From positions 1 through 30,456 of the IMG/VR virus record IMGVR_UViG_3300049009_000227: a stretch of DNA of 30,456 bases. The stretch is one strand, 5' to 3'. Of the stretch, positions 6,103-28,939 are shown in pieces. Below the pieces are notes generated by a model that was not told where the DNA came from, searched no databases, and saw only the letters and a list, made by a program, of their open reading frames with translations. A program made the position numbers and the translations under genes. The stretch's first letter is position 1. Each line of letters starts with the position of its first letter. The stretch comes from a virus (taxonomy: Duplodnaviria > Caudoviricetes).

Positions 6103-6130
6103 AACAGGAAGTTCTTGCTTACTTACAAAT

Positions 6131-6207
6131 TTAGCCGTAACTGGCTGATAGTTCTGGGACTATAACACCCTGCCTACAACCTATAGGACTTTAGACCTTA
6201 TCTAATG
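6131..6207 (+). promoter_or_regulatory. Structured leader of scaffold gene (hairpin plus two possible H-type pseudoknots)
   Basis: TTAGCC/GGCTGA (6131-6148); ATAGT/ACTAT (6148-6163) with loop GGG complementary to CCC 6168-6170; AGG/CCT (6185-6198) with loop TTAGA complementary to TCTAA 6201-6205. Confidence 0.4.
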
Positions 6208-7212: not shown

Positions 7213-7241
7213 TCACCCCCCCCTAAACACTATATACCAAT

Positions 7242-8270: not shown

Positions 8271-8278
8271 TAACTGAG

Positions 8279-9408: not shown

Positions 9409-9412
9409 TACA

Positions 9413-9718
9413 ATGGCATCTCCTAACTTCGTCTTCACCCAGCCTTTTATCAGAGGCTTTACACATCAGACAACCAGCGTTGGTCTTACTGACACGCTCC
9501 TTCTTGATGCCGCTGTGACTCCTATCCGTAGAGTCAAAGTCATCATCCAGAATCAGTCTGCTACGGCTATCATCACAGTCCGCTTTGACTCTGTTACTGG
9601 CGTTGGTCTTACCATCCAGCCTAACCAGAACATCACGCTTGATAACTTTAACGGACACATCCGTTGCATTTCTAATACAGCCGCAACTAATGTCCACATT
9701 GCTTACGCTGTTTGCTAA
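9413..9718 (+). CDS. Small all-beta virion protein (hypothetical)
   Basis: 101 aa, Thr/Val/Ile-rich; VIIQNQS...GLTIQPNQNITL pattern. Confidence 0.7.
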   Translation: MASPNFVFTQPFIRGFTHQTTSVGLTDTLLLDAAVTPIRRVKVIIQNQSATAIITVRFDSVTGVGLTIQPNQNITLDNFNGHIRCISNTAATNVHIAYAVC

Positions 9719-9719
9719 T

Positions 9720-9827
9720 ATGGTTATCTTATTCTTATCTGGAATCGCCTTTTTAGGTGGTCTCTATGTTGGTGTTCGCTGGTCTGAAAAACTCAAGGAA
9801 ATTTGGTACTCCATTGTTTCTAAGTAA
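9720..9827 (+). CDS. Small single-TM membrane protein (35 aa)
   Basis: ATG 9720: MVILFLSGIAFLGGLYVGVRWSEKLKEIWYSIVSK; fills the gap exactly and is TAATG-coupled to the next gene. Confidence 0.65.
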   Translation: MVILFLSGIAFLGGLYVGVRWSEKLKEIWYSIVSK

Positions 9828-11437
9828 TGCCTAATGAATACCAGAAGGATGGAGACATAGCGTTTGTCGGGCTTAACAGCCGTGATAATCCTAATGCTTT
9901 GTCTACTGGATTTGTTAGTCAGTCTGAGAATTTTAGATTAGATAGAGGCATTGCAACTGTCCGAAAGGGGATGCAACGCAAGACTATTGGTGCTTTGATT
10001 GGTCAAACTATTTATGGTGTTGGTACTTACATAAATAGCACAGGACAGGAAATTATAATCTGTGTTCTAACTGATGGATTATACACATACAATCCTCAGT
10101 CTGAATCGCTTTCTTCTAAGATTAATTTTCCGTCTGGAGAGACGATTACTACACAAGATGGTTGTGATGTTGTTACGGCTATAGACAAGGTATATATTAG
10201 TCGTGGATGGTCTAATCGTCCTCTTGTTTGGGATTTAGGAGTTTCAATAACAACATTACCTATATCTCCGTCTTCTGGTCATAAATTCCCAAATTGCACG
10301 GGTATGCTATACTATGCCAATCGTATGATTGCATTAGGAAAGCATCACGCTGAAACAAATACACTTCGTAATTACGATACAATTTCAGTTAGTAATTTCC
10401 TAGATTTTACAGAATGGGATGCTGTTGATGCTTTCACGGTCAACAATGGAAGCAATGACCAAGTTGTTGGTGTTGCACCGTGGACTTTAAATGAGTTCTT
10501 GGTGTTCATGCGTAACAGCATTTTCTACATCAATACTGGAAATGACAGATATGCCTCTGGAGATGGGCTTTCAGCCACCTCATACATCAAGACGCTTGCT
10601 ACTGACATAGGTTGTTCTGCCAGAAAGTCAGTCGTACAGGCTGGTGGAGGTGTATTCTTCCTTTCAGATAACGGTATATATTTCCTTCAACCTCAGCCAG
10701 CATCGGCTGAGTCTATGAAATTGCTGACGATGTCAGACCCTATCTCAGCACCTATTGACGATGTCATTCAGCGTATTAATCGCACCTATGCTTATCGTGC
10801 AGTTGCTTCCTATTGGAACAACAGGTACTATCTTGCAGTACCGCTTGATTCCTCTGTCGATAACAATGCTATTTTGGTATATAACTTTATTTTAAAACAA
10901 TGGGAATCTGTTGATACATTCCCTGCTGGTTTTGATGTGTTTGATTTCTTGGTTGCTAAAAAAGATAACCAAAGACGCCTATATGGAGTCGATACTGACA
11001 AGGGCATATTCTTGATGGAGCAGTTAAACTGGGATGAATACAATGAGTCTGCTGGCACTCCTATTCTTCCATTCTATCTTCCAGACACACTTAATGCTCT
11101 TTCATTTACTCCTAGTCCTATTATTGCAGTTTTAAAAACTCGCAGATACGGATTCAATACAATGCAGGACAAGAGATTCAGTTCTTGTGAAATGGAATTG
11201 ATAGCAGATGCTGGTTCTCAAATTACAACGGTAGCAGAAGTATTTAATCCAGATATAACCTATACTGTTGATGTGTTTGGTTCTGAATTTACTGAAGACT
11301 CTGTCCGAAGAAATGGAATCAGAAAGATTGGAACTGGGATACAGTTCACTTATACATCTACAAATTTAAGACCTTCAATCCGTTCTTCCTCCGTGTATGC
11401 AACGGTACAGAAGCCTACTAACAATTCTAAACAATAA
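9827..11437 (+). CDS. Probable tail nozzle / DNA stabilisation protein (tail tubular B / P22 gp10-like beta-propeller)
   Basis: 536 aa, beta-rich; F-x-GLNSR N-terminus, IGC...SVVQAGGGVFFLSDNGIY, NRYYLAVP, ILVYNF...WESVD motifs. Confidence 0.75.
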   Translation: MPNEYQKDGDIAFVGLNSRDNPNALSTGFVSQSENFRLDRGIATVRKGMQRKTIGALIGQTIYGVGTYINSTGQEIIICVLTDGLYTYNPQSESLSSKINFPSGETITTQDGCDVVTAIDKVYISRGWSNRPLVWDLGVSITTLPISPSSGHKFPNCTGMLYYANRMIALGKHHAETNTLRNYDTISVSNFLDFTEWDAVDAFTVNNGSNDQVVGVAPWTLNEFLVFMRNSIFYINTGNDRYASGDGLSATSYIKTLATDIGCSARKSVVQAGGGVFFLSDNGIYFLQPQPASAESMKLLTMSDPISAPIDDVIQRINRTYAYRAVASYWNNRYYLAVPLDSSVDNNAILVYNFILKQWESVDTFPAGFDVFDFLVAKKDNQRRLYGVDTDKGIFLMEQLNWDEYNESAGTPILPFYLPDTLNALSFTPSPIIAVLKTRRYGFNTMQDKRFSSCEMELIADAGSQITTVAEVFNPDITYTVDVFGSEFTEDSVRRNGIRKIGTGIQFTYTSTNLRPSIRSSSVYATVQKPTNNSKQ

Positions 11438-11439
11438 CA

Positions 11440-12507
11440 ATGGCTCAATTTTCTAAAGGCGATACTTTCACAAACGGGGAACAGGTAACTGGTGCTCGTT
11501 TAAACCAACTTGTTGACTCTGCTACCCTACTTGCTGGGGCAATCACCGACCAAACAAACATAACGGCTGGAACAGTTGCGTCTAACGACTCGATGCTTCT
11601 CTACGACTTGTCTGCTACGGCTCTTCGTGAAGCGGCTGTATCTGACATCATTGGTTCTAATCTTCCTATTGTTTCCTCTTCCATTGCTGGTGGTGCTAAT
11701 AGCGATATCTTAATTACTCCTAATGACGGCACTATTGTCAGCGGTGTTTCTTATACTTCTGCGGATGGTCTTACTGTAACAGTTACATCTACTGGTCATA
11801 TTCTTACAGTTGGACAGGTTATCTTGATTACAGGTGCTGGAACAGGCTATAACGGCACATTCAGAGTTGCTACAACGCTTGCTAATTCTTTCACATATGT
11901 GATGACAACAGCGGCTACCGCTGGCTCTGGAACCCTTTCATATACAAAAAAGGGTCTTACTAAGGTTGCTGGAAATGAAACAGTTGCTGGAAATCTGTAT
12001 GTTGATGGAAATCAATCTTCAACTGGCACACTTGATGTAGTTGGTGCTACAAAGATAACTGGCAATACAACGGTTGTTGGTAACCTTTCAGTATCTGGAA
12101 CTACAACTCTTACTGGAATTCCTACAGCACCTACAGCCACAGCCCTTACAAATACCACACAAATTGCTACAACTGCATTTGTTCGTGCTGATAATAACAT
12201 TAAGGCTTGGGTTAATTATAACAACACAGCGGCTACGCTTACTATCAGAGGTTCGTATAATGTTACTAGCGTGACAGATAATGCTGTTGGAGATGCTACA
12301 GTTAACTTCACGACAGCACTTGCTTCTGCTAATTATGCCGCTTGTGCCACGCATTCTTCTGATGCGGCAACATCAAATCCCCAGTCAGTTTCACACTCTC
12401 TTGATTTTACAACTTCAAGTGTTCGTATCAGAAACATTTTCATACCTGCTGGAAGCGGACTTACATATATTGATTCCCTTTACAACTCTGTTATAATTTC
12501 CCAATGA
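11440..12507 (+). CDS. Tail fibre / receptor-binding protein
   Basis: 355 aa, Thr/Gly/Ala/Ser-rich; VTGARLN anchor, VTVTSTGH...GYNGTF domain, fibre motif PTAPTA...NTTQIATTAFV, tip IKAWVN...SYNVTSVTDN. Confidence 0.8.
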   Translation: MAQFSKGDTFTNGEQVTGARLNQLVDSATLLAGAITDQTNITAGTVASNDSMLLYDLSATALREAAVSDIIGSNLPIVSSSIAGGANSDILITPNDGTIVSGVSYTSADGLTVTVTSTGHILTVGQVILITGAGTGYNGTFRVATTLANSFTYVMTTAATAGSGTLSYTKKGLTKVAGNETVAGNLYVDGNQSSTGTLDVVGATKITGNTTVVGNLSVSGTTTLTGIPTAPTATALTNTTQIATTAFVRADNNIKAWVNYNNTAATLTIRGSYNVTSVTDNAVGDATVNFTTALASANYAACATHSSDAATSNPQSVSHSLDFTTSSVRIRNIFIPAGSGLTYIDSLYNSVIISQ

Positions 12508-12698
12508 GCAATAAAATCATCATTTACCCCAACTCTGAAGGTGGAGTTGCTATCATTGTTCCCGTCATTGATTGTGGACTTACAATTGAGCAAGTTGCTC
12601 AAAAGGATGTTCCTGCTGGAGTTCAGTTCAAGATTATTGATGCTTCTGAACTTCCTTCTGACCGCACTTTCCGTAACGCTTGGGAATTCACCACATGA
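12504..12698 (+). CDS. Tail fibre assembly-associated protein, part 1
   Basis: 64 aa, ATGA-coupled to fibre; GVAIIVP...KDVP...LPSDRTFRNAW motif. Confidence 0.7.
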   Translation: MSNKIIIYPNSEGGVAIIVPVIDCGLTIEQVAQKDVPAGVQFKIIDASELPSDRTFRNAWEFTT

Positions 12699-12934
12699 GT
12701 ATCAGAATTAACATATCAAAGGCTAAGGATATCAAGTTAGACCAGTTTAGACTTGAGCGTCAGCCTCGTCTTGAGGCTCTTGATTTAGCCTATATCAGAG
12801 CACTTGAATCTGGAGATATCGAGGAGCAAGAGCGTATTAAGTCTGAAAAGAAGGCTTTACGAGATGTTACCAAGATTGTTCTTCCAGATGACATCAACGG
12901 GCTTAAGAACTTTAAGCCAGACATCTTGAAGTGA
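12695..12934 (+). CDS. Tail fibre assembly chaperone-like protein, part 2
   Basis: Start re-called at ATG 12695 (ATGA overlap); R-x-x-R-x-x-x-L-x-x-x-D...KKALRDVT...P chaperone pattern. Confidence 0.7.
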   Translation: MSIRINISKAKDIKLDQFRLERQPRLEALDLAYIRALESGDIEEQERIKSEKKALRDVTKIVLPDDINGLKNFKPDILK

Positions 12935-12935
12935 T

Positions 12936-13367
12936 ATGCTACTTGCTGACATCATAACCTTTATCAAGAAGACCCAAGAAGAAAAGTCTACAAAGGCATT
13001 TCCTTGGGCTGATGATGAGTTAGGTCAGTATGTCAGTTGGGCATTTAGCAAGAATTGCCTGTTTCTTGAATCAGATGAAAAGGGTATAAACGGACTTCTT
13101 ATAGCCTATCCTGTAAATTGGGTCTTTACAAATGATGTAAAACACCTTCTTCCTACTGACGCTGAATTCACTCCAGAGCAGGAAAAGGAAAAGCATATAT
13201 CCATAATGGATGGAATATTCAAAACAACAGAAGCCAGAAAGAATATAACTTTAAAATTTATCAAGAGATTTCCCAACTGGAAGAACCAAGCAAAATGGGC
13301 TGTCCGCAAAGGAAATGTCACAGAACTTAACAACAGATACATCCAACTTACTGGAAACATACTTTAA
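12936..13367 (+). CDS. Hypothetical protein (T7 gp13-like position; possibly GNAT-like fold)
   Basis: 143 aa alpha/beta ORF coupled to the first ejection gene; fold guess rests on position and the ESDEKGINGLLIAYP hairpin only. Confidence 0.65.
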   Translation: MLLADIITFIKKTQEEKSTKAFPWADDELGQYVSWAFSKNCLFLESDEKGINGLLIAYPVNWVFTNDVKHLLPTDAEFTPEQEKEKHISIMDGIFKTTEARKNITLKFIKRFPNWKNQAKWAVRKGNVTELNNRYIQLTGNIL

Positions 13368-14395
13368 TGAATAAACTATTTACAATTCGTCTTGCTCCGA
13401 TTGGATTAATGCTTGGTGCTACCGCTGGAACTGCGGCTATGACTGGCGTTGCCGCTGTTGGAATGGGTGCTTCAATGCTTGGTGGCATAGGTAAAGGTGG
13501 TAGCACAAAGATTCAAGCCCCTGCCAATCGCTCATATTTGGGTGAGATGCAGGATGCCCTTAAGTCTCAAGGTCAAATCCAAGACCAGTTGCTTGGTCTG
13601 GAAAGTCAATATACACCACAGTACCAGCAACTTCAGCAACAAACCCTTATGGGTCAGATGGGTACTCTTCAGAGCCTCTACGGTGAGGCTATCCCTCAAT
13701 CTATGGCTCTACAGAGCCAGTATGCCCAAGCACAAGCCCCAATCTATGGACAGGTAGGTCAAATGGCTTCTCAAGCCTACCAGCAGACCTTAGACCCACA
13801 GACTAGAATGCTGGCGGCTCAGATGCAACAGAGTGCTATTAATGACTTAAATTATGGTCGTAATCTTAGCCCTCAGCAGGAACAGTACGCCCAACAGACG
13901 GCTAGACAGGCTATGGCGGCTAGAGGTCTTTCTGGAAATCAAGCGGTTGCTCAAGAGGTTATGAACTCTTATCAGATGCAGAACACCCGTGAAGATAGGG
14001 CTAGAACATATGCAAATAGCGTTTACCAAGGTGGCATTCAACAGGCTGGACAGGCTATGGGACTCTATGGTTCTCCCTTGCTTGCCAATATGAATACGAT
14101 TAGTCCTACTGGTCTTATTGCCCAAGGTCAAGCAATGCAACAGGGTCTTGGTGCTAAACTCTTTCAACCAGAATCCCAGTATAATGCTGGTGTCTATGGT
14201 GCTAACCAATCTAATCAATCTCAGACTCAGATTGCTAATGCTCAAATTGCGGCTGGTCAACAGTCTGGTATGATGTCTATGATTGGTCAACTTGGCGGTG
14301 CTTATCTTGGTAACCAAGGATTATTTGGAGGAAAGACTCCTCCTGCTCCTGTTAATACTTCTCTTACTTCCAACTGGGTAAGAGATGATGGTTAA
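13367..14395 (+). CDS. Internal virion / DNA ejection (pilot) protein
   Basis: 342 aa, Gln/Ala/Gly/Met-rich; hydrophobic Gly/Ala N-terminus ending GGIGKGGS; AARGL motif; C-terminal GMMSMIGQLGGA. Confidence 0.75.
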   Translation: MNKLFTIRLAPIGLMLGATAGTAAMTGVAAVGMGASMLGGIGKGGSTKIQAPANRSYLGEMQDALKSQGQIQDQLLGLESQYTPQYQQLQQQTLMGQMGTLQSLYGEAIPQSMALQSQYAQAQAPIYGQVGQMASQAYQQTLDPQTRMLAAQMQQSAINDLNYGRNLSPQQEQYAQQTARQAMAARGLSGNQAVAQEVMNSYQMQNTREDRARTYANSVYQGGIQQAGQAMGLYGSPLLANMNTISPTGLIAQGQAMQQGLGAKLFQPESQYNAGVYGANQSNQSQTQIANAQIAAGQQSGMMSMIGQLGGAYLGNQGLFGGKTPPAPVNTSLTSNWVRDDG

Positions 14396-14406
14396 TAACT
14401 AAATTT

Positions 14407-17028
14407 ATGGCTTCTTCTTTCCAACAATATACGCAAGGCATTCAAGGGGTTCAAGGAATCTCTGAGGCTGGTGCGAACATAGGCAAGATGACCCAGCAGG
14501 GTCTTGCTTCCTTTGGCGATTCTATCGGCAAGGGAATTCAGATGTACAATGAGAATGCGGCTAAGGATGAACTGTTAACAGAAAAGGCTAAAGCATTAGG
14601 TACACAAATTCAGCAGTATGCGGCTCAGTTCGGAAACAGTCCAGAACACGCTGAATTCACAAAGTCATTACAACCCTATATTGAGCAACTTGCTAAAGTT
14701 CCTTCTCAGTCCCTGTCTCAAAAGATGGGTACTGTTACTGGTGTTGAAGCCGCTTTCAAGGACATAGGTCAGAACTTACAGGCATTTGAAATAATGCGTA
14801 AGGAGAAGTTAAATCGTGATTTCTGGGATGCTAAGAATACTACACCTCTCAAGGATATCGTTACAGACCCTGTTATGATTGCTAAGGGTCAAGCCCCTTG
14901 GTCTGACAGAAAGACATATGACCAGAACATTGCTGACTTCCGTCAACTCGCTCAGAACGCTGTAGACAATACAGGTGCGGCTATTGACATCAACAAGGCT
15001 ACCGAACTGTACAAAGAAAGCATCAAGAAAACAGTCAAGACTGGTCGTGATATTAAGGGAAGACCTATTGCTCCAGAAACTCTTGCGGCTCTTAATGACC
15101 AGATTGCAAAGGCTGAAGGTTATGCGGCTAATGAACAAACAACTGATGGAGTCACAGACTATTCTAAGGAATCAGACCTATATGATTCTCTCTCTAAGTC
15201 TGCAAGTGATGTCGTTAAGGAAAAGAAAGCACAAGCGGCTAGTGACCCTACAAACCCTGCAAACCTTAATGCAGATACTGTTGAAAGATGGAGCAAGCAG
15301 TCAGCCGCCGCTACAGATGCTATTAGAGCATTAACTGGTCAATTCAAAGGACAGAAACCTAAGCGTGAAGAGTTCACGGGTAAACAGATTGAAAAGATGG
15401 CAATTGATGCCAAGGACAACTACTATCAATTCGTAGGTAAAAACTTTGACCAAGTTCAAAAGGATGACGGCACTACAGTTTACATCAGAAAAGGACAAAT
15501 TAAACTTAAAAACTATGATTTGGGTGGTCACGAAATTGACGAAACTCCAGAAGTTGCCAAGAAGTATCTTCCTTTCTATGAAGCAAAGAAGAAGGAAGCC
15601 GACCTTGCCATCGAAAGAATTGGAAGAAACGAACAAGCAAAGTCTGAATTAACCAATATTGAATCTCTGCTGGCACAAGCAGATGAACGCATTGCAAGAG
15701 GAGACAATGTTTCCAGAGGATGGATGTCTAAGACTGAAGACATCATTGAATCTGGAGTATTAGATGGTTTAAATAAATACGGATTACAAGAACTTGCTCA
15801 ACTTTCTATTCACCAAGGAAGATACAAGAATATCACTCCAGAAGTTGCTAGAGAGATGATTAGGGAAGTTAACAAGGACTCAATGGGCGAGATGGCTATG
15901 CTTGGAGCATCTATTCTTCCTCAGCCATCTGCTGTTACATTTGGTATTGTTGATAGAGCCAGAGATTTAACAGACGAAGAAAAGAGAAACATTGCTGACG
16001 CATTTACGACATTCCGTTCCAAAGATAAGATTACTAGAGCCGAAAAGTCTGGTGATGCCGAATACCTCAAGGAAGAACTTCTCAAGAGAAAGGGTCTTCT
16101 TGAAAGCCAACTTACTACAGGAAAGGAAGCACCTACGGCTGGAGAAGTATCTGTTTCTGCACAAAAGGCTAAAGTCGAAGCCGCTAAGACGGCTCAAGCA
16201 GATACAGAAACACTTCTTGGTGTTGATAGAAATCTTGTTGTTGGAACTAAGCAGAGAGAAGTTGCTATGTCAGTTGACAGACAAGAAAAGGCTATGGCTG
16301 GATTCTTCCAGAAGAAATATGGCTATGTCCCTGCTGGCTTTAGCGAGGCTTTTAAGGCTAATACGCCCGAAGCCAACTTCAAGACAATGGAAACCCCGTA
16401 TGGGGCATTTATGTACGATGGCAAGACATGGACTCAAATCAAGACTGGAACGCCTCTTACAGCCAAGGAAGCGGGTGAAAATGCCGCCTACAGATTTAGC
16501 AACCCAGATGGTACGCCCAAGGAGTTTGCCAATTCTGGTGTTTTCCTGTCTGGTAACTTTGAAGGCACGACTACAGAACTTGCTAAGTTCAGAACTGAAT
16601 ACCGAAGCCTTGCCCATTCTGAAAAGTCTATTGAAAGACTGATTGAGATTAACGATATGTTTGGTGAAGGATTTAGCCCTTCCCTTAGAGGTGAGGCTAA
16701 GGCTCTTCTCCCTGCTATTAAGGCGGCTCTTAGAAATGAAATTATTGGTGTGGGTACTGTTTCTAACTATGAACAGGAACTTATCAATGATGTTGTTGCT
16801 GGTGCTACTGACATCTGGTCGCTTGAATCTTCTGACAGAGCCAAACTCATGGTTATTCTTAATCGTGTTAAAGACTCTATCCAAGATGTTCCTGCTATAT
16901 ATGGTCTTACAGTCCACAGGCAAGGAAACAGCAGAAATGTTGAGGGTGCTCTTCGTGAGCGTCTCCAAAATGCTGGTGGAATTAGTGCTAGAGAACAGGC
17001 ATATAATGCCGCCCATCCTAATAAGTAA
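14407..17028 (+). CDS. Internal virion / ejection protein (873 aa)
   Basis: Long helical ORF between pilot protein and giant protein; Gly/Gln amphipathic N-terminus, C-terminal GTVSNYE motif. Confidence 0.7.
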   Translation: MASSFQQYTQGIQGVQGISEAGANIGKMTQQGLASFGDSIGKGIQMYNENAAKDELLTEKAKALGTQIQQYAAQFGNSPEHAEFTKSLQPYIEQLAKVPSQSLSQKMGTVTGVEAAFKDIGQNLQAFEIMRKEKLNRDFWDAKNTTPLKDIVTDPVMIAKGQAPWSDRKTYDQNIADFRQLAQNAVDNTGAAIDINKATELYKESIKKTVKTGRDIKGRPIAPETLAALNDQIAKAEGYAANEQTTDGVTDYSKESDLYDSLSKSASDVVKEKKAQAASDPTNPANLNADTVERWSKQSAAATDAIRALTGQFKGQKPKREEFTGKQIEKMAIDAKDNYYQFVGKNFDQVQKDDGTTVYIRKGQIKLKNYDLGGHEIDETPEVAKKYLPFYEAKKKEADLAIERIGRNEQAKSELTNIESLLAQADERIARGDNVSRGWMSKTEDIIESGVLDGLNKYGLQELAQLSIHQGRYKNITPEVAREMIREVNKDSMGEMAMLGASILPQPSAVTFGIVDRARDLTDEEKRNIADAFTTFRSKDKITRAEKSGDAEYLKEELLKRKGLLESQLTTGKEAPTAGEVSVSAQKAKVEAAKTAQADTETLLGVDRNLVVGTKQREVAMSVDRQEKAMAGFFQKKYGYVPAGFSEAFKANTPEANFKTMETPYGAFMYDGKTWTQIKTGTPLTAKEAGENAAYRFSNPDGTPKEFANSGVFLSGNFEGTTTELAKFRTEYRSLAHSEKSIERLIEINDMFGEGFSPSLRGEAKALLPAIKAALRNEIIGVGTVSNYEQELINDVVAGATDIWSLESSDRAKLMVILNRVKDSIQDVPAIYGLTVHRQGNSRNVEGALRERLQNAGGISAREQAYNAAHPNK

Positions 17029-17066: not shown

Positions 17067-20000
17067 ATGGCAGACCTTTATGCACCCCAGCCTCAGTTTA
17101 TCAATGCTGAGGGGGCTGGACAAACTCAACCTCAAGAACAAGGACAAGGCATAACAGGAGATATCGAGGTTGATAAGTATCTTCAGTCTCTTCCAGAAAG
17201 CCAGCGTGAAGCGGCTCTTCAGCGTTTAACTGCACCTCCTACTGGAGAGGAATTAAACAAAAGAATTCAAAGCGGTTATAATCCTACTCTTGAAGATTTT
17301 GATACAATTGAGTCTTGGCATAAAAACCACGAAGTAAACATCATTGAAGGAATTGGTGCTGGTATTGAACAGGTAATGGGTGACTTAAGTCGTGCCGTTG
17401 GTGCTATTGCTGACCATCCCCTTGATGTCTTATCAAAGACCCCTGCCAATGTTGCAGAAGGTTTTGCTCAAGGCACAAGAAACTTCTATGGTATGGCGGC
17501 TCAATCTGCTGACCCCACCAGCAAATTATTTAGATTTAAAAACTTCCTAAGCGGAACAGGTTCTAAAGAAGACAGATATAATCAATACATGGAGGCTCTT
17601 GCTTTCAACCGTCATTCGGAAGAATTGATGACTGGCAAGACAACCTTGGTTATGGACAAAGACTCCATTAACGCTGAGGTCGTTCAAGCCGCTTCTTATA
17701 TCGCTGACCCTACTTTGTTTATTCCGTTTGGTCAAGTTGCTTCTGCTGGCATGAGAGCCGTTGGAATGGGAGAAAAGATGATGGTTGCTGGTGCTAAGGC
17801 GGCAGCAATTAAGAATGGAATTATTGGTGGAACGCTTAAATGGGGCGTTGGTGCTCCTGTTGAGTTCCTTGGTGGTGCTGTTAGAAACACTATTGATTTT
17901 GGTATTGAGCGTGGTTCTACTGCTATTGCGGCTACCACAGGTATGGCGGCTGAAGACATTGGCAAGACCCTTAAACTTAGCGGACTTCCTATGACTGCGG
18001 CTGGATTTGCTGGTCATACTATTCCGTATGTTAGTGCTATTGCTGAGACCCGTGTTGTTGCTGGTGCGGCTGGAGGTTTTGGTGAAGCCATTAGTGCTGT
18101 CGGTGAAACCATGCTGAAGAACAGACAGTTCGGGCGTGGCATTAACTCTTGGGCTAGAGAAGCCCTTGAGAATACACCTAATCTTTCTGGTCACGCTAAG
18201 GGTCTTTTAAAAGTTCTTGATGCGGTTGACCCTATGTTTACCTATGGTGCGGCTGTCACTCAAGGTGCGGCTCATGGGGCAATGATTGGCGGTACACTTG
18301 GATACCTATCTGGTGGCGAAGAAGGCTTTGCCCACGGACTTGGTGCTGGTATTGCTCTTGGTGGCGTTGGTGCTACTGCTGGTAAAGTAGTTGCTGATGT
18401 AACTAATGGCACACTCTATGAGCGTGTTGCTATCCAGCGTAAGATGGTCATTGAAGGACTTAAGACCATTGACCCAGATAAGGCTACTGCTTTTGAAGCC
18501 CTAGTTAAGAATGCTGAAGTATCTGGTGACAGGTCGTACATTGCTCATATCGATGGTATCATTGCTGGCATTGATAAGGTTGCTCCAAACTCAAAGTTCT
18601 TTATTCGCAATACGGCTGACCATGTCAACTGGCTTAAGGGCGAAGGTTACGACATCACAACAGGCAGACTTGCTGAAGCCAATGTTAAGTTCAAGGAATT
18701 AGGACAAGACCGCAGAGTCAGAGGTCGTGCTCTTGGATTCCTTTCTCAAGTTGGAGACCAGTTCGCTGGAGACCCAGATGGCTTTATGAAGCATTTGGCA
18801 TCGCTTCCTCAAGACCACGCTCTGCGTAAGGCTTTCTTTCGTCTCGATGGCGAGCAGAAGCAGGTGATGCTTGACGCTATCAAGAATCATGGAGACCCCG
18901 AATTCCTTAAGGCTAATGGAATTGAGTACGCTGACAGGGTTAACAACAAGAATTTCAAAGAGTGGCTCGATAGAAACAACGAGTACTTTGACCCTTCTAA
19001 TCCCGAAAACAACACCCCTTTATTAAGGCAACAACTTGCTGGTCTTGATTTAACAAACCCTCAAAGCGAAAGCGGAAGAAAAGGTTCTGAAATTGTTGAA
19101 AGAATTAAACACATTGAAGCGGTTAAAGAAGAATACAAGCAATGGACTGGCAAGGCTGATGCAAAGACACTAGCAGAAGCAGATGCCCACCAGCGTAAAA
19201 TCTGGGAAGGCAGAGCAAACAGACCTGTTGCTGGTGTCATTGAACCTAAGAAGGCTCGCATTGCTGGAAAGAAACTTTCTGAATACTACGGAGACATCAA
19301 CTACGCTGAGATGTCTACAGCCCGTGTTAATGACCTCTTTGCTACTGGCGATGTTGCTGGTGCTAGAAAACTCCTTGGTACATTCCTAAAGGATAACACA
19401 GGTAAAGATGGAGTGCTTAACGACAGAGGTCGTATGCTCCGTAACAAGTTGGCAACTGATGGATATTTAGATAAGGATGGCAACCTTAGACCTCGCAGAC
19501 TTAATGCTAACGATGACCAGCCTACCGCTGGAATGTACGCTGGCAACGAAGGCTTTGTTCTCAAGCGTGATGCTACTGGTGCTATTGAAGTTCACTTAAG
19601 CCTTGATAATCTCAGTAAGGATGGTGCGGCTCACGAACTCTTCCACGCTATCTTCAAGGAAAGCGTCCTTCGTCCCGACTTCATTGACCGCCTTTCTAAA
19701 GACCTCCTTGGCACATTCGACAAGGACGGAAAACTCCTCAAGGCTGGCTCTGTCAATCGCAGAGAACTCCGTGACTTTTTCAGCAGATATATCGACTTAA
19801 CCAACGACAAGTTAGAAGATTTTAAAGACGAGTCTGCCAGACTTAATAGTGCTATCCGTGAGTTTGAAGCGGCTGGCGAGGCTAAGACTATCTCTCCAGA
19901 AGCCATTGCAACCCTTCACCAGTATGTCGAAGAGTTCGGTGCTTATTACTTCCAGAACTGGCTCAAAGCACAGTCCCCCGACTTCCTTTTCAGAGGTGGT

Positions 20001-23000
20001 AAACTTGAAGGCATCCGTGGTCTGATGGATAGTGCTAAGAACGGATGGCTGGATTTCTGGGAACGCACATTCCAGTCCAAAGACCCTAAGTTCAGATTTG
20101 GTGAACTCGCTGAAGGTGAAATCGATGGCGGCTTTAAGACAGAAAGCGGTAAGCGTATCCGTGTCTCTTCTCTTGATTACTTCAATCGTGACTTCATCCG
20201 TGCAACGGCTGACACGAACAGAGGCAACTTTGACATCAATAGACTCAGCCAAGAAGGACAGGCTCAATATGTAAATGCTAACGGCATTAGAAATACCCAC
20301 AGGATTGACAATACAGGTCGTGCTGTTCGTCTAAGCAGACGAGAAGCGGCTAAGGCTAACGCTATTGCTGGCAAGGAAATCTATAAGATTCTAAAGGGCA
20401 TTAATCCTAATCGTGCTGTCGATGGTGACGGTAACTTCATCGGTAGACTTAACGATGCTGAAATGGATGCCATCGTGAAGAGCGGTCATGTCAACAGGGC
20501 TTGGGTTAACAAACTTAAGATGGCTTACGACATCCTTGACGGCAAGCAGTCTAATGTCGCTGAGTTCGGCTACCACGGAAAGACAGAGCAAATCACAGAT
20601 GCCTCCTATCCTAGACTCTTTGGAGACGATGTCTCGTTCAAGCACCGAAAGGCTATCCTGCTAGGCGTTGACTTAAAGGTCGGACAGAACGGCACATTCC
20701 ACGCTCTCTTCCACACGCTTGACAAGGCTGTCATTGAAGCCCGTGGAGACAATCTCTGGAAGGACTCTGCAATCCAAGACCTCTGGCAAGGTAACCGAGG
20801 TGCTATGGAGCAAGACTTCTTTAGATACCTTGAGAATGCTTCTAAGCCCGATTCAGACACTAGCAAGAGACCTTCTGCTGAACTCTGGACAGATGGCAAT
20901 GGTAGCAAGCGTAGAGATGCTCTGCACCAGATGCTTGGCATGGCTAAGAACGAAGGTGACGCTTACATCAACAGACCTATTGCTGAGATTCCCCTTGGAA
21001 TTCGACACAGCGTTACCACCTTTAACAACGATGGTATCTCTTCATTCCGTGTAAGCGGTACGGAGCGTTACAACTACAACCACGATAACGCATTTAAACT
21101 TTTAAGCCGTAATTGGAAACCTTCTGAGATGAAGGCTGAAAAGACTGGAACTGGTGAAATCATTACACACGCCACAGGATTCAAGTTCATTAAGAATGCT
21201 GACGGCTCTGTTAAAGCATTCACATCTGCTGGGTTAAAGATTGGCACTTTTGATAACATTGAACAAGCGGCTAAGGCTGGCGAAAAGTTCTCTAATTCCA
21301 TATACGACAATACACGGAACGCAGTTATTAAGGATAGAGAGTTCCAAGATAAACAGGCTACTCAATTCAAACCTCTTAGCAGAGAGCAAAGACTCCGTGC
21401 CATTGAATTAGGTGATGTTTTTGCTTTAGATGAAATGAAGGGTTTTGTTGGTAAACGAACACTTCTTCGTCAAACAAGAGACGAACATATCTATCAGAGA
21501 GCATTAGAAGCGGCTGAAAATCCAGAAAAACTTCTTGCTTTGGCTGAAGCCCAACTTCAAAAAAATCAGTCTGTAAGAGATGAATACAATAGTAAGATGC
21601 GTGACCTTACTATACAGGAGCAGGAATATGAAAAAGGAAAAAGTGAATTCATAGATGCTCACAACAAAAAGATTGATGAATTAAAAGCAAAGTACGGAGT
21701 TGCTCGTTCTTTTGAAGAATGGAAAACAAGTACTAAAAATGTGAATCCTCACAAAGAGTTTGTAACAACACCAGAAGGTGCATACATAAATAACTCAGAA
21801 TATAATACTTTTGAATTAAACAAAGGAATTGAATATACAAAAGAACAGTCAAGAAAAATGGCTCTTCTTCAAGCAGACGCAGAACACAAAGCACAAGTGT
21901 ATCAATATGATATGTGGGCTGAGGCTTCCTTAAAAGAAGCAAATCGTCTTATGACTGTTGAAGATGGTATTGAATTGTGGAAGAAACAAAATCACGAAGC
22001 AATTCACGACCCTATTTGGGGAGAGTTAAGTAGCCCTCTTTACGAGAATGTTTCTAAACAAGAAAAAGCAGATATGCTTGCTGGTATAGTTGAAGCAGCC
22101 GCTAACCAAAAAGATTATAGCGGTTTATTAGAGGCTCTGTTTGCTAGTGAGTACGATGATAAAATTCAAACTGGAAAGCCGTTTGTTGCTGTTACAACTC
22201 ACGGAACTGGCAAAGTTGAACTAATGCTTGCTCGCTTATATGCGGCTGATAAATTAGGTTCTCACTACGACATTCCCTCCTCTCGGATGGGTTCGTTCTC
22301 TGCTGGGTCTCAAAACACTTCTAAGGCTTATGCTAAGAGACCTCAAAGTTATAATATAAGTTTTGAAGATAGACTTATTGAAGTTTCAAATCTTGGTGAA
22401 AAAGAAAGAAAACTTGTTGAAAAGTACAATCAAGAAATAGTTAATACATTAAATGATGAGTGGGCTAAAGGAAACGCAGAATACCACGACATAATTAAAA
22501 CTTATGGTAATAAGATTTTCTCTTCTTGGACTAAGAAAGTAGAAATAACACCAGAAGTAGTTGAACGATATCAGCAACTTGTTGCTCAAGGTTATGGAGA
22601 GCCTTTAGAAAAGTTTGTTCCTAGTCAGATTAACGAGTTCCATAAGATGGCTTCTCTTGATATGGTTGATGCGGCTGGTTGGCGTATGGACTGGGCTTCT
22701 CCAGAAATAAGAAACAAATTCAAGGAAATTGATAGTCTGTATAAGCAGAATCGTCCTAATCATCCTCAAGTTGATATGCAACTTCGTAATGTTATCCGTA
22801 TGGATAATCCTTATGTTGTTGTAGACCCTCGCTCATACGAAGAACATTTTATCAGCCCTCATATGAAGCGAGCAATAGAGGCTGGTCACGATGGAATTAT
22901 CTTCAAGCGATTTGCTGATGGTGGTGAGCGTGACAATGTTTTTGTTGTCTTCAAAGACTTCATGGCTGACAACATCAAGGTCATCGATACTTCGTTTGAT

Positions 23001-25646
23001 GGAGAGCAAGTCCCCCGTGGCTCAGATGAAACTGGGCGTGTGCTTAAAGGAGGCAAAGAACTTAAGTTAAACTTCAAACCTGTTGAATGGAACAAGGACT
23101 TATACAATAGCAACGGAGGATTTGCCAAGGCTCTCAAAGAAGGCAGAATTGTGTACGGAAATGTTCAAGACCTATCTGACAAAACTGCTGTTACTATCAA
23201 TCCAGATAACAGCCTAGTTGGAGTTATCTCTGCTGACGGAAAAGAAATCTTTAAGGGTCAAGGAGGTGTGTTCTACTCCACAGCCAATGATGCTAACGCT
23301 GGTCTTTGGGCAAGCAACAAAGGTGCGGCTAGTAAACTTGCTTCATACATCAACAACGCCATAGATTTGGACATCAAAAGAAATGGTATGCTTCCAGACG
23401 GAAAGGTTAATCCCGATTACAAGCCGACTGTATACATTACTCTGGCTAAATCTGAAGCAGGAAAAATCCTCACATCAGAGAATGGTGCAAGAGGTGCAAT
23501 GAATGTGTTAGAAAAGATGCGTGACAATGGAATTATTCCAGATGGCGTGTTCAGAGATTCTATCATTAAGGCACTTCACTTCACGGAAAAACAAACAGGC
23601 TCGAAGATAGACATCAATAAGACGCTCGCTGGCGATGCGTTACCAGCAAGACTTCACGAACTATTCTTTGCCAGAGATGACTCTTCGTTCAAGGGAAGAG
23701 GTCATTTTGTTGATGCTTTTATCGGCAACATTGCTGAAGCGTATAAGTTCAAGGATACGATAGATAAGAAGAATCAGTTTAAGGATAAGCCTCAAGTAAT
23801 TGCAGACCTCAAGGCTACTTTTGGAGACCAGTACTCAAAGGGTTTTACTAAGAGTGGAATGATTGAAGCAATCAGCGAATTGTTCTCAGACCCTGCCCTT
23901 AAGGATGTAAAGCAGAATGATGTATATGGTGCTATCAAAATTCAGTCTAAGGTTAAGATTGATAATACATCAGCCCATGATGCTTACAGCCACGCATTAA
24001 AAACTGTTGATGCCAGCGACCACCAGTTAATCCTCTTTAAAGAACCTAGAAATGTTAGAGAGGTTATGAACACGGCTGAAGGAAAGCCCGTGCCTTCTAA
24101 GACTCCAATCTATGAAGACGGCAAGCCTAAGTTAAGCAAAAGAGGAAACGAAGTATACAAGGACTATACTGCTGACTTTGGTTTCTCCCAAGAAGGTGCT
24201 AAGGTAGTTACATACAAGAGCAAGGCTGGGATGCAGGACAGTACTGGAATGATGGCAAAGCCTAGGGAAGAAGTCATGCAGAGAGCCAAGGAAGCGGGAT
24301 ACGGAACTACTGTCTACTACCACGGAACGAACAAGGATTTCACGGAGTTCAAGTCTTCTCCTAGAAACCATTCTGTTGGAGCAAGCGAAGGCAGAGAGTC
24401 TGGAAATATGTTCTACTTGTCTTCTGACCCGCTAGATGCTGAACACTACAAGAAGGCTTGGGTTGGAGACCAAAGCAAGAACAGAGTCATAACGGCTTTT
24501 GTGAAGATGGACAACCCCTACGATGTCTCTTCAAACGCAAAGGCTATCCCGTTCACGCCAGAACAAGAAGTTATCTTAAAGAAGTACCTCGACAAATACT
24601 CTAGACACCCAGACAAGGCATATCAAATGCTGTCTATAGTCGGACAGCAAAAGCGTGGTAACAATCCCTTGTTCCAGTTATTTGAAAGAAACGAGCGAGC
24701 CGCAATGCTCAAAGAAATGGGCTATGACGGCATTAAGGACGGAAGACATATCTCTGTCTTTGATTCTGAGCAGATTAAGTCTGCCGATGACTTCACCTAC
24801 GATGACGCTGGTAAGGAGATTCCTTTGTCTGAACGCTTTGACAAGACGAAGAAGGATATCCGTTATAAGCCAGTCGAGGCTAATGAAGGTGGTCGTATCT
24901 ATGACCCAAAGAGCAAAGAGTTCAAAACCAAGTTTATTGGCAAGTGGGCTGAAGAAAACCCCGACAGGCTCAAGGGCTATAATATCGAGTTCATCGACAG
25001 AGGTGGCATGGGTGGCTATCGCAATCCTAACGCACAGAATGTCCGCATCAGAATGCAGGACAATTCCAAGAAAGGAAAGACCATAGATGTCGGTCACATC
25101 ACGGCTCAGATAGACCATAACAGCAGGGTCGCAACACTCTCTAGCAACATAGCCCCAGAATACAGAGGCAACAAGTTGTCCTATGCTCTATACAGCGAAA
25201 TGTCTGAACGCCTTCGTTCTATGGGTGTCAAATATGTAGACGGGCAGATTGTGAATCCAGAGGGTATTCCTGTTAGGGTTCGTGAAAAGGTCATTGGAGA
25301 TACTAGGATGCTTGCAAGAGATGGCTCTTACCAGTCCTCTAGACCTGTTTCTCAGAAAGAAGCCAGCACAATCATCAAGAGAAGACAAGCGATGGGAGGT
25401 CAATGGGAGGGCATTGATGTCGTTAACGAACTCGACATTAACGCTCGCTACAAACCCGCTGAAGGCTGGAGAGACTGGGCTACTGAGAAGACTACTGTCG
25501 GCTCTGTAATCAAGAACACAGTTGGATACCTTATCATCGTCAGCGGAGATAAGTTCAAGGTCTATAACCCTCAGAAGGCTATGGTAGGTATCTACACTAA
25601 CCTCGACCAAGCCAAGCGGAGAGTCCAAAGGGACGAGCCTAAGTGA
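17067..25646 (+). CDS. Giant polyvalent ejection protein: Gly-zipper region, zincin-like metallopeptidase, two ADP-ribosyltransferase-like domains, GNAT acetyltransferase, unknown domains
   Basis: 2859 aa. HELFH at aa 856-860 (nt 19632-19646) with EE at 955-956; HGT...MDNPY...G[HY]DGI...VF motifs twice (H1712, H2419); GNAT motif A-like PEYRGNKLSYALY from aa 2697. Confidence 0.85.
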   Translation: MADLYAPQPQFINAEGAGQTQPQEQGQGITGDIEVDKYLQSLPESQREAALQRLTAPPTGEELNKRIQSGYNPTLEDFDTIESWHKNHEVNIIEGIGAGIEQVMGDLSRAVGAIADHPLDVLSKTPANVAEGFAQGTRNFYGMAAQSADPTSKLFRFKNFLSGTGSKEDRYNQYMEALAFNRHSEELMTGKTTLVMDKDSINAEVVQAASYIADPTLFIPFGQVASAGMRAVGMGEKMMVAGAKAAAIKNGIIGGTLKWGVGAPVEFLGGAVRNTIDFGIERGSTAIAATTGMAAEDIGKTLKLSGLPMTAAGFAGHTIPYVSAIAETRVVAGAAGGFGEAISAVGETMLKNRQFGRGINSWAREALENTPNLSGHAKGLLKVLDAVDPMFTYGAAVTQGAAHGAMIGGTLGYLSGGEEGFAHGLGAGIALGGVGATAGKVVADVTNGTLYERVAIQRKMVIEGLKTIDPDKATAFEALVKNAEVSGDRSYIAHIDGIIAGIDKVAPNSKFFIRNTADHVNWLKGEGYDITTGRLAEANVKFKELGQDRRVRGRALGFLSQVGDQFAGDPDGFMKHLASLPQDHALRKAFFRLDGEQKQVMLDAIKNHGDPEFLKANGIEYADRVNNKNFKEWLDRNNEYFDPSNPENNTPLLRQQLAGLDLTNPQSESGRKGSEIVERIKHIEAVKEEYKQWTGKADAKTLAEADAHQRKIWEGRANRPVAGVIEPKKARIAGKKLSEYYGDINYAEMSTARVNDLFATGDVAGARKLLGTFLKDNTGKDGVLNDRGRMLRNKLATDGYLDKDGNLRPRRLNANDDQPTAGMYAGNEGFVLKRDATGAIEVHLSLDNLSKDGAAHELFHAIFKESVLRPDFIDRLSKDLLGTFDKDGKLLKAGSVNRRELRDFFSRYIDLTNDKLEDFKDESARLNSAIREFEAAGEAKTISPEAIATLHQYVEEFGAYYFQNWLKAQSPDFLFRGGKLEGIRGLMDSAKNGWLDFWERTFQSKDPKFRFGELAEGEIDGGFKTESGKRIRVSSLDYFNRDFIRATADTNRGNFDINRLSQEGQAQYVNANGIRNTHRIDNTGRAVRLSRREAAKANAIAGKEIYKILKGINPNRAVDGDGNFIGRLNDAEMDAIVKSGHVNRAWVNKLKMAYDILDGKQSNVAEFGYHGKTEQITDASYPRLFGDDVSFKHRKAILLGVDLKVGQNGTFHALFHTLDKAVIEARGDNLWKDSAIQDLWQGNRGAMEQDFFRYLENASKPDSDTSKRPSAELWTDGNGSKRRDALHQMLGMAKNEGDAYINRPIAEIPLGIRHSVTTFNNDGISSFRVSGTERYNYNHDNAFKLLSRNWKPSEMKAEKTGTGEIITHATGFKFIKNADGSVKAFTSAGLKIGTFDNIEQAAKAGEKFSNSIYDNTRNAVIKDREFQDKQATQFKPLSREQRLRAIELGDVFALDEMKGFVGKRTLLRQTRDEHIYQRALEAAENPEKLLALAEAQLQKNQSVRDEYNSKMRDLTIQEQEYEKGKSEFIDAHNKKIDELKAKYGVARSFEEWKTSTKNVNPHKEFVTTPEGAYINNSEYNTFELNKGIEYTKEQSRKMALLQADAEHKAQVYQYDMWAEASLKEANRLMTVEDGIELWKKQNHEAIHDPIWGELSSPLYENVSKQEKADMLAGIVEAAANQKDYSGLLEALFASEYDDKIQTGKPFVAVTTHGTGKVELMLARLYAADKLGSHYDIPSSRMGSFSAGSQNTSKAYAKRPQSYNISFEDRLIEVSNLGEKERKLVEKYNQEIVNTLNDEWAKGNAEYHDIIKTYGNKIFSSWTKKVEITPEVVERYQQLVAQGYGEPLEKFVPSQINEFHKMASLDMVDAAGWRMDWASPEIRNKFKEIDSLYKQNRPNHPQVDMQLRNVIRMDNPYVVVDPRSYEEHFISPHMKRAIEAGHDGIIFKRFADGGERDNVFVVFKDFMADNIKVIDTSFDGEQVPRGSDETGRVLKGGKELKLNFKPVEWNKDLYNSNGGFAKALKEGRIVYGNVQDLSDKTAVTINPDNSLVGVISADGKEIFKGQGGVFYSTANDANAGLWASNKGAASKLASYINNAIDLDIKRNGMLPDGKVNPDYKPTVYITLAKSEAGKILTSENGARGAMNVLEKMRDNGIIPDGVFRDSIIKALHFTEKQTGSKIDINKTLAGDALPARLHELFFARDDSSFKGRGHFVDAFIGNIAEAYKFKDTIDKKNQFKDKPQVIADLKATFGDQYSKGFTKSGMIEAISELFSDPALKDVKQNDVYGAIKIQSKVKIDNTSAHDAYSHALKTVDASDHQLILFKEPRNVREVMNTAEGKPVPSKTPIYEDGKPKLSKRGNEVYKDYTADFGFSQEGAKVVTYKSKAGMQDSTGMMAKPREEVMQRAKEAGYGTTVYYHGTNKDFTEFKSSPRNHSVGASEGRESGNMFYLSSDPLDAEHYKKAWVGDQSKNRVITAFVKMDNPYDVSSNAKAIPFTPEQEVILKKYLDKYSRHPDKAYQMLSIVGQQKRGNNPLFQLFERNERAAMLKEMGYDGIKDGRHISVFDSEQIKSADDFTYDDAGKEIPLSERFDKTKKDIRYKPVEANEGGRIYDPKSKEFKTKFIGKWAEENPDRLKGYNIEFIDRGGMGGYRNPNAQNVRIRMQDNSKKGKTIDVGHITAQIDHNSRVATLSSNIAPEYRGNKLSYALYSEMSERLRSMGVKYVDGQIVNPEGIPVRVREKVIGDTRMLARDGSYQSSRPVSQKEASTIIKRRQAMGGQWEGIDVVNELDINARYKPAEGWRDWATEKTTVGSVIKNTVGYLIIVSGDKFKVYNPQKAMVGIYTNLDQAKRRVQRDEPK

Positions 25647-27800: not shown

Positions 27801-28015
27801 TTTTTGTATTTTAGTTTGTAGAGTGCTTTGCCGTGTTCATCGTGCGACTTTTGAAGGCTGGCGATAAGGTTGTTAACCTGTTTCTCCAGCCGCTCGACCT
27901 CGGCCTTGAGGCTAGCGTAGTCGGAATACTCAACATATTCCCCTGCAGGAGATTCAACCATATCGGCATCAAAGCAACAATTCAGTTCTTCTACCTTATA
28001 TCGTTTTACGCTCAT
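27797..28015 (-). CDS. Hypothetical protein with GEYVEYSDY and LKAEVERL motifs
   Basis: 72 aa, ATGA-coupled on both sides. Confidence 0.75.
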   Translation of the reverse strand: MSVKRYKVEELNCCFDADMVESPAGEYVEYSDYASLKAEVERLEKQVNNLIASLQKSHDEHGKALYKLKYKK

Positions 28016-28749
28016 AGTCCTTTTACAGAATAGATAAATTCTTTTCCCACACGATGGGCTTGCCAGACCTTCCAGTCATTGCCTTGGGTGAACCCGTAAG
28101 TCCATCCAGACCCCCACTTGCTGGTCGCTAGGCGGTTCTTAGCGTAGTCGGGGGACTTATGGCATAGGCATCCACCAGAGAAGCCTACAGCACCCATATG
28201 CTTACGGGCGTTGACTTGCTGGATAGAATGCAAGTGACCCATAATGACAGCACCCTGCGGTTCGGCATAATGGATTGCGTGTTCCTCTACGGCACGGACA
28301 CCACAGGTATAGCCGTGTACGAAGGCAACCTTGCCTAGACGATGCACACCTTCTTCAGCGTGGTAATCGTAAATCTTCTTGCAACCATTCTTCTTTAGGT
28401 GATTGCGGATATCGCTTTTGAGGTCGTGGCAGTAGTCAACCATCATCCCGTGCGTAGAGCCGTTGATGATTTGGTCGAGTCTGTCATCGTGATTCCCGTT
28501 TAGAAAAATAGTAGGCTGGACACGGGTGATAAATTCCTTGCCAGCCTTGACATCAGCGACCAGAGATTCATCTTCTTCCTTCCGTCCTGCACCCCTGCGG
28601 ATAGAACGGAAATCGAAATTGTCTCCAAGGTGGATGACCTCGTCTGGGTCGAACCACTTTAGGAATTTGTAAAATTGCTTGGCAACATCTTCATCGATGT
28701 GGTCTCCGTGGTTATCGCCCACGGCTACGAACTTAATTAGTTTGCTCAT
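28012..28749 (-). CDS. Calcineurin-like metallophosphoesterase
   Basis: Start re-called at ATG 28749 (MSKLIKFVAVGDNHG, 245 aa); all five motifs present: DNH, GDNFD, GNHD, FVHG, GHLH. Confidence 0.9.
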   Translation of the reverse strand: MSKLIKFVAVGDNHGDHIDEDVAKQFYKFLKWFDPDEVIHLGDNFDFRSIRRGAGRKEEDESLVADVKAGKEFITRVQPTIFLNGNHDDRLDQIINGSTHGMMVDYCHDLKSDIRNHLKKNGCKKIYDYHAEEGVHRLGKVAFVHGYTCGVRAVEEHAIHYAEPQGAVIMGHLHSIQQVNARKHMGAVGFSGGCLCHKSPDYAKNRLATSKWGSGWTYGFTQGNDWKVWQAHRVGKEFIYSVKGL

Positions 28750-28939
28750 TGGAAATATCGAATGTGTCGTTACGCAAGACCTTGAATTGGTCGGTACGCA
28801 TATGACGGATAACTCCGTCTTTTTCAAATACAATAGCAAAGATGTCGTTAGACCAAGTCCCGCCATCCCGCACATACATCAGCCAGCCGTAGCCGATGTC
28901 GGTGCTGACTGGGATTGGGTTGCGGAATTCGTGAATCAT
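28733..28939 (-). CDS. Small beta-rich hypothetical protein
   Basis: 68 aa, MIHEFRNPIPV...GYGW..YVRDGG; ATGA-coupled. Confidence 0.75.
   Translation of the reverse strand: MIHEFRNPIPVSTDIGYGWLMYVRDGGTWSNDIFAIVFEKDGVIRHMRTDQFKVLRNDTFDISNEQTN

Follow-up and report, generated by a model that had tools for sequence, protein, structure and literature searches.

A giant protein of 2,859 residues, encoded by an uncultured freshwater phage, carries a short tag at the junctions between its cargo modules, and modules are exchanged between related proteins at this tag. One letter of the tag follows the host protein and co-varies with a residue of a predicted zinc peptidase in the same chain. The protein is best explained as a polyvalent ejection protein with modules swapped at the tags. 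Its own predicted peptidase is likely to cut these tags, freeing ADP-ribosyltransferase-like (ART), GNAT acetyltransferase, and other modules.

The giant protein and its tag

The stretch of DNA analysed, referred to here as the window, is 30,456 nucleotides long (IMG/VR record IMGVR_UViG_3300049009_000227) and is a partial contig from a genome that resembles those of podophages. The giant gene lies downstream of genes for terminase, scaffold, SU10-type capsid, tail, and fibre; it comes after two ORFs (342 aa and 873 aa) and ahead of a holin-like gene. These neighbours form a phage structural-gene context. The product is probably the third (gp16-like) ejection protein; its packaging and ejection are proposed from gene position only. 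The protein combines at least two unrelated conflict domains, ART-PolyVal and a GNAT fold, with a peptidase motif, and its architecture is variable and mosaic across relatives, both of which are properties of polyvalent proteins. A scan of the window proteins detected no polymerase.

Neither a cultured relative nor proteomics was found. OQ984151, the closest match by capsid and terminase, was checked in three large-gene stretches, none of which contains HExxH. A first genome scan gave no prophage relative. A second gave one contig in an Acidimicrobiaceae MAG, which is possibly mis-binned. Among the sequencing runs listed as matching, there was no RNA dataset; the best match is a freshwater metagenome, perhaps the very source of the window.

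Table 1. Features of the giant protein and their positions in the window
Feature	Nucleotides	Strand	Remarks
Giant polyvalent protein, 2,859 aa	17067..25646	+	ORF; late gene
Predicted zincin-like metallopeptidase, ~aa 489-1010	18531..20096	+	Large helical insert between strands 1 and 2 (AF2)
Glu828, candidate specificity residue	19548..19550	+	Just ahead of conserved Gly829, strand 829-833
HELFH zinc-binding motif, aa 856-860	19632..19646	+	
Glu955-Glu956, candidate third zinc ligand, later helix	19929..19934	+	
Core domain with predicted WYL/Sm-like beta-barrel, ~aa 1134-1347	20466..21107	+	Conserved
Junction 1, NWKPSE	21111..21128	+	Closes conserved core; counterpart in 109/110 proteins, lineage-specific letters
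Module 1, small beta-hairpin and helix domain, aa 1352-1435	21120..21371	+	AF2, homology
Junction 2, QFKPLS	21363..21380	+	Deviant; letter follows host; swap there not seen
Module 2, helical region and ART-PolyVal-like domain, variable insert, aa 1436-2004	21372..23078	+	
Junction 3, NFKPVE	23070..23087	+	Identity to P0002, P0006 drops at K/P boundary; pLDDT <50, poorly modelled stretch
Module 3, alpha/beta domain, aa 2005-2398	23079..24260	+	No family match
DYKPT look-alike	23415..23429	+	Inside module 3, not a junction
Junction 4, MAKPRE	24252..24269	+	Aromatic lost; identity to P0003, P0025 begins at K/P boundary
Module 4, ART-PolyVal ADP-ribosyltransferase-like domain, aa 2399-2601	24261..24869	+	PF18760
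Junction 5, RYKPVE	24861..24878	+	Identity views; cargo model
Module 5, GNAT acetyltransferase fold, aa 2602-2796	24870..25454	+	Fold match
Junction 6, RYKPAE	25446..25463	+	Short linker; identity views; cargo model
Module 6, terminal small domain, aa 2797-2859	25455..25643	+	Module 1 homologue

The initial annotation had noticed six Lys-Pro motifs behind an HELFH motif and a Glu-Glu pair, and all are confirmed in the 2,859-aa ORF (Table 1). The pattern [NQR][FWY]KP, which was picked post hoc, occurs five times against 0.10 expected from composition. The deviations are junction 4, which has no aromatic, junction 2, which has no Glu, and junction 6, which has a short linker.

A search with the core retrieved 110 proteins of 1,897-4,875 aa. 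In all but one, the first junction was located, as WQP, FMP, WKP, FQP, or a less common variant; more distant loci contribute FKV and FSP/YSV junction types. In the relatives, 402 copies of [FWY][KQM]PxE were counted in 156,226 residues of cargo and none in 113,871 residues of core, over the 91 of 102 proteins whose first junction was located by pattern. Each protein's own motif was also counted across 27 loci, which include one near-duplicate pair. The 47,765 cargo residues hold 130 copies. The 113,540 residues elsewhere, made up of 32,865 core residues and 80,675 residues of other ORFs (at least 150 aa, some of them spurious frames), hold none. In general form the tag reads [FWY]-[K/Q/M/S]-[P/V]-x-[E/D]; it is found throughout the family and nowhere outside the cargo region, in which some relatives have long stretches with no detected motif. 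The consensus first put forward, [NQR]-[WFY]-K-P-x-E, holds for the lineage of the window. Across the family, the residue before the aromatic is variable, and K and P are lineage-specific.

Head-maturation proteases such as T4 gp21 and phiKZ gp175 cut after Glu. The tag ends in a conserved Glu or Asp and could be cut by another protease of this kind, encoded by host or phage. A lineage-specific protease that travels with the core would also be expected to produce the host matching described below. Such an enzyme is very unlikely, however: the 80,675 tag-free residues of other ORFs include capsid, scaffold, and large late genes, 16 other ORFs scanned in the window (a partial contig) give no protease family match, and the residue that tracks the tag sits in the giant protein's own peptidase.

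The cargo modules differ in how firmly they are assigned. Module 4 is an ART-PolyVal domain (Pfam PF18760, E 3e-17, above the cut-off). Module 5 has the GNAT fold (Z 11.1, rmsd 3.0, 117 aligned), with a Pfam E-value of 0.088 only. Module 6 matches module 1 weakly by direct BLAST (E 2.0) and matches module 1 of relatives at E 3e-8. The second ART-like module, the GNAT, and the second copy of the small domain in the original module list are thereby borne out. The first ART-like module is weaker, since only Atlas features (score 0.90, a lead) point to an ART-PolyVal-like domain at the C-terminal end of module 2. Module 3 has no match in Pfam, Atlas, or the fold lists, which were filled by GNAT, and 12 homologues share invariant G, G, W, A, F, R, Y, H, and Y residues.

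Module exchange at the tag

All-against-all BLAST of 102 cargo regions placed 48% of 6,536 alignment starts and 47% of 4,499 ends within 10 residues of a motif, compared with 6.9% of random positions; the BLAST pairs behind these figures are not independent. Starts are most frequent at the aromatic, and ends at the Glu. Identity falls from ~90% to background at the K/P boundary of the tag, and in most of 16 anchored identity views the drop lies at this boundary or a few residues from it. With the relative P0004 at junction 4, identity fades ~25 residues past the boundary. The proposal that the tag is a cassette-swap junction is upheld by this alignment of homologous giant proteins: breakpoints cluster at the motif, and identity steps at the K/P boundary. 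About half of the alignment ends lie away from motifs, and variable inserts within modules explain some of these.

Single comparisons illustrate the exchange. The core of L001 is 96% identical to that of the window, yet its ART-PolyVal module stands directly after module 2, and its module 3 homologue is placed after the GNAT. Module 3 of the window is 93% identical to P0004, whereas module 4 is only 48% identical to the same protein. Module 4 is 98% identical to P0003 and 88% to P0025, a QP-type protein (core 51%). Module 5 is 83% identical to P0038, the core of which is only 43% identical. The nearest relatives of the window thus change at junction 4, and this change, together with the identity steps, makes MAKPRE a true junction. 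Relatives at this point read MAKP, ALKP, SLKP, or SRKP, and Lys-Pro-x-Glu survives the loss of the aromatic. Two motifs had been marked as deviant at the outset. MAKPRE proves to be a junction, and QFKPLS has a host-dependent letter and was not seen swapping. An assembly chimera was considered as the source of the shuffling and rejected: junction DNA is common over ~15 bases or fewer, and the same junctions appear in separate assemblies.

Predicted structure places the tags between domains. In a cargo model (aa 1680-2859, mean pLDDT 68), junctions 3-6 lie within or end stretches below 50, and at junction 4 such values reach as far as the Lys. Junction 3 carries less weight, as the preceding ART-like domain is poorly modelled. 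Junction 1 is a coil with pLDDT ~57-68 between the core and module 1. All four tags of the cargo model are therefore in low-confidence coil between domains, in agreement with the predicted boundaries, and a common motif at domain junctions is a feature of self-processing polyproteins. The extra DYKPT that had been reported inside module 3 is present at nt 23415. It has a pLDDT of 82-87 in the same model, immediately ahead of a core strand, and no acidic residue at +2; the pattern is present in 3 of 116 proteins. The pLDDT separates this decoy from the four junctions of the model.

Swaps at the motif, a slight rise in codon sharing, and tandem junction relics such as YQPTEG-FKPREE could also point to recombination at the DNA level, with the motif as a site or relic comparable to the attachment site of a cassette. 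Codons were compared across 25 genes, with 139 pattern matches that include a few non-junctions: 51% of 1,083 comparisons share the codon, versus 45% expected. All four Pro codons occur in tags, and Ser is encoded by both TCN and AGY. Synonymous sites vary freely, and a conserved DNA attachment site, as in an integron-like cassette array, was not found in these tags. The reading frame is always kept and the aromatic nearly so (it is lost at junction 4), and a DNA site leaves the link with residue 828, described below, unexplained. A DNA site is highly improbable and already largely refuted. The tag is kept at the protein level. The small excess of codon sharing and the tandem relics fit crossovers inside the tag with no fixed DNA site, and the 9-15 bases that tags have in common may aid crossover.

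The predicted peptidase and residue 828

The second letter of the tag is set by the host protein and not by the module. Cargo motifs carry the dipeptide of their own protein's first junction in 371 of 458 cases, compared with a permutation mean of 150 and maximum of 199 in a test that ignores kinship. In KP hosts, 58 of 59 cargo motifs match the first junction. Modules that are 83-93% identical between KP and QP/MP hosts end with the letter of the host. Among 116 proteins, Lys was kept in 32/32 within-module look-alikes in Q/M hosts; at true module ends, Lys is found in 1/186 in Q/M hosts and 56/57 in K hosts. MP hosts mix letters (50 MP, 33 QP), so Q and M are interchangeable to a degree.

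The core contains a predicted zincin-like peptidase, with HExxH on a helix and a conserved Glu on a later helix. H856, E857, H860, E955, and E956 are invariant in sets of 64 and 32 aligned relatives, and the full-length members of the family yielded no naturally peptidase-dead relative. In several distant relatives, 3.4-6 kaa long, HExxH is absent ahead of residue 1300, and a crude scan shows no clear motif. AF2 predicts a helix at 489-505 and strands at 510-514, 829-833, and 840-845. The fold weakly matches the N-terminal domain of PDB 4fxq_A (Z 6.8, rmsd 5.9, 189 aligned). Pfam gave no peptidase match above the cut-off in the giant protein, Foldseek with the core gave no PDB match at E<=0.001, and no solved relative was found by sequence. 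Matches in BFVD are uncultured phage proteins only, several of them labelled polyvalent. The beta-barrel of the core resembles PafBC, DriD, and BrxR, again weakly (best Z 6.5, rmsd 2.7, 95 aligned).

According to the accessible text of PMC3985423, the edge strand of zincins binds substrate, and residues before this strand contact P1'. Judged from topology, not from coordinates, strand 829-833 is the putative edge strand. Residue 828 is acidic in 52/55 K-type, 0/106 Q/M-type, and 7/32 S-type proteins. In the initial set, Glu828 was found in 23/23 K-type and 0/87 Q/M-type proteins. Lys828 pairs with Gln, and proteins with Ala828 have Met or Gln in the tag. The 23 K-type proteins are invariant at 55 of the 574 core columns; apart from the Lys of the tag itself, 828 is the only one of these that every one of the three Q/M lineages has lost.

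The association extends to held-out relatives. The first held-out set, fetched after the rule was set, comprised 57 new cores, 55 with a junction; 828 was acidic in 18/18 K-type and 0/12 Q/M-type proteins. The second comprised 30 of 42 cluster representatives (12 without a full core were left out, and three duplicate earlier loci), with 12/15 and 0/8, respectively. Five of 203 rows had gaps or aligned poorly at these columns and were left out; over the other 198, 828 was by far the best column, with 9-10 mismatches, followed by a column with 23. Exceptions are seven S-type proteins that are acidic at 828 and three K-type proteins that are not. Asp1020 was tried as a second specificity residue (23/23 K-type) and failed on held-out relatives.

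Phylogenetic independence was also considered. A first independent-pairs test gave four pairs (p=0.25). For K versus Q/M, five pairs on supported branches gave 4.5 in the same direction and 0 opposite (p=0.06), and K versus all others gave seven pairs (p=0.125). Because the letter follows the host and co-varies with residue 828, reading of the tag by the protein's own peptidase is supported indirectly, at the level of sequence. The 828 link could reflect contact with junction 1 only.

A docking role accounts equally well for the host matching and the 828 link. In that case, the tag would bind the peptidase-like domain and most copies would stay uncut, either as a tether that packs cargo on the core or with cutting at junction 1 only. 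Lys-Pro is retained at the deviant junctions 2 and 4 although the tag is incomplete there, which would suit docking, as would the N4 virion RNA polymerase (vRNAP), whose HExxH domain is packaged uncut; the accessible part of PMC5512222 describes such peptidases in N4 vRNAP, ArdC, and TraC1, yet these proteins are packaged or transferred uncut. Against docking, neither the catalytic Glu857 nor any metal ligand varies. One cleft could presumably not hold four to eight tags together, whereas an enzyme could turn them over. Docking is considered unlikely. The least probable reading is a translocation or unfolding signal for the ejection channel or a host chaperone, which would pace domain passage. 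One tag stands ahead of each folded module of a protein that is probably ejected, but other probable ejection proteins have no tag, and the one core residue found to track the tag belongs to the peptidase domain, which further weakens the signal reading.

Cutting by the protein's own peptidase is the preferred explanation. The giant protein would be packaged and ejected as a gp16-like component, and each tag would bind along the peptidase edge strand, with Lys against Glu828. Cutting would free ART, GNAT, and other modules carried as one chain, probably during or after ejection. The cut bond may lie before the aromatic or between Lys and Pro, and the former is favoured because the aromatic is the most widely kept residue. 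An imported module would have to take on the letter of its host. Swaps would survive only at tags, because only there would the new module stay whole and releasable.

Related tags appear beyond the family. Sister families (21-29% identity) have FMP, FQP, YSP, or FLP repeats, while both P0192 and P0334, which have an apparent Glu828, mix KP and SP. In unrelated polyvalent proteins, the ART-PolyVal module ends with DIR-[YF] followed by letters of their own, often S/A-L-D, and other junction-like sites read [RK][YF]S. The chances are about even that tailed phages use a general lock-and-key polyprotein code. Under such a code, an embedded zincin would read aromatic-X-Pro/Val-x-acid tags, the residue before the edge strand would set X (Glu for Lys, Lys for Gln, Ala for Met or Gln at the 828 position), cassettes would be re-keyed to the host peptidase, and an aromatic-anchored tag would close ART-PolyVal in unrelated families.

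In this family, candidate sites come together with naturally occurring K, Q, M, and S variants, internal negative controls, and a single residue predicted to set specificity. If cutting is true, it would explain how phages shuffle injected enzymes without broken delivery. It would also define the mature forms of many uncharacterised phage modules and offer a small, tunable protease-tag pair. If the lock-and-key code is true, cut sites would be predictable across the class, and the peptidase could be retuned by a single substitution.

Comparison with known systems

Polyproteins of eukaryotic RNA viruses contain an embedded protease and matching junction sequences, and on the best reading the giant phage protein is alike in both. 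It differs in being a structural protein of a dsDNA phage, in having a zinc enzyme, and in that modules are exchanged and reordered between lineages.

The phage-type polyvalent class was defined by Iyer et al. 2017 (PMC5512222), who proposed autoproteolytic domain release. These proteins are alike in that an HExxH peptidase with a downstream Glu is fused to ART-PolyVal and GNAT in one late-gene polypeptide. The accessible text of PMC5512222 names no junction motif, cut site, or specificity residue, and the word 'linker' is absent from its main text.

The N4 virion RNA polymerase, gp50, is likewise a giant third ejection protein with an HExxH domain (PMC13434306; PMC5512222, both in part). It is unlike the present protein in that it carries an RNA polymerase and is packaged uncut, with no cleavage reported in the available portion of PMC13434306. 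Stx phage phi24B gp47 is a 2,811-aa virion protein with polyvalent domains and a metallopeptidase, and is a proposed ejection protein; in the portion of the preprint consulted, the peptidase is proposed for peptidoglycan degradation and not for self-processing (bioRxiv 10.64898/2026.04.10.717836). It was absent from the tblastn matches. DarA and DdrB of the P1 darA operon are head-packaged and reported to be proteolytically processed, and DdrB has an MPTase. They are unlike the giant protein in being processed before packaging, by an enzyme and at a site not established, and no repeated tag is described for them in the accessible text of PMC5512222.

No report of the tag motif or the 828 pairing was found in the literature covered, which mostly leaves aside subscription journals; the accessible parts of PMC9503650, PMC13434306, and bioRxiv 10.64898/2026.04.10.717836 name no such tag. 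The class and the idea of self-processing were known from 2017. What is added here are exact candidate sites and a candidate specificity residue with held-out support.

Core and predicted peptidase of the giant protein

The C-terminal part of the conserved core of the giant polyvalent protein is a predicted WYL/Sm-like barrel, with fold matches to PafBC, DriD, and BrxR (Z <= 6.5). Nucleic acid is a possible ligand of this barrel, which might also act as a gate for the peptidase. The predicted zincin peptidase is split between strands 1 and 2 by a helical insert (residues about 520-800), and the location of HExxH in relatives ranges from about 580 to 940. The far relatives P0270-P0342 are 5,500-6,400 aa long and have the post-peptidase core domain in common. 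Several of these proteins have no HExxH upstream of residue 1300.

The gene upstream of the giant-protein gene encodes 873 aa. Compared with its 920-aa counterpart in the close relative L001, both ends are almost identical and the middle section is replaced. No tag (junction motif) of the giant protein's type is found within it.

Coordinates of features
Feature	Sequence	Coordinates	Strand
873-aa upstream gene	window	14407-17028	
Helical insert in predicted peptidase	window	18620-19460	
Predicted WYL/Sm-like barrel	window	20466-21107	
Metallophosphoesterase gene	window	28012-28875	-
Doubled junction	L009	16880-16920 region	
Structural protein YP_010108995.1 (3,694 aa)	NC_055853.1 (L047)	4303-15387	

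Junctions and cargo modules in relatives

Doubled junctions are observed in relatives L009, P0025, P0060, and P0102, where a host-type tag lies six residues upstream of an older tag (YQPTEG-FKPREE, YMPSES-FTPSEE, and YQPAEA-FTPSEE). These doubled tags are junction relics. In a set of 116 proteins, 124 segments belong to the GNAT cluster, and P0011, P0086, P0096, and other relatives carry several diverged members in tandem. Some modules at the GNAT position possess an HExxH-like motif of their own (GHEGRH, VHEPWH).

The family member L048, whose contig is assigned to an Acidimicrobiaceae MAG and is possibly a mis-binned phage contig, combines QP tags with Asn at peptidase position 828.

Unrelated polyvalent proteins and a cultured phage

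The polyvalent proteins P0114-P0150 are unrelated, possess an HExxH domain of their own and use junctions resembling [RK][YF]S[LI][DE]. The residue preceding the equivalent Gly is Asn. A structural protein of a cultured Flavobacterium elemo phage (YP_010108995.1) contains HEIFH at residue 1543. Downstream of this motif lies a homologue of module 3, which starts after SRFQ. This phage is a culturable system in which processing could be tested.
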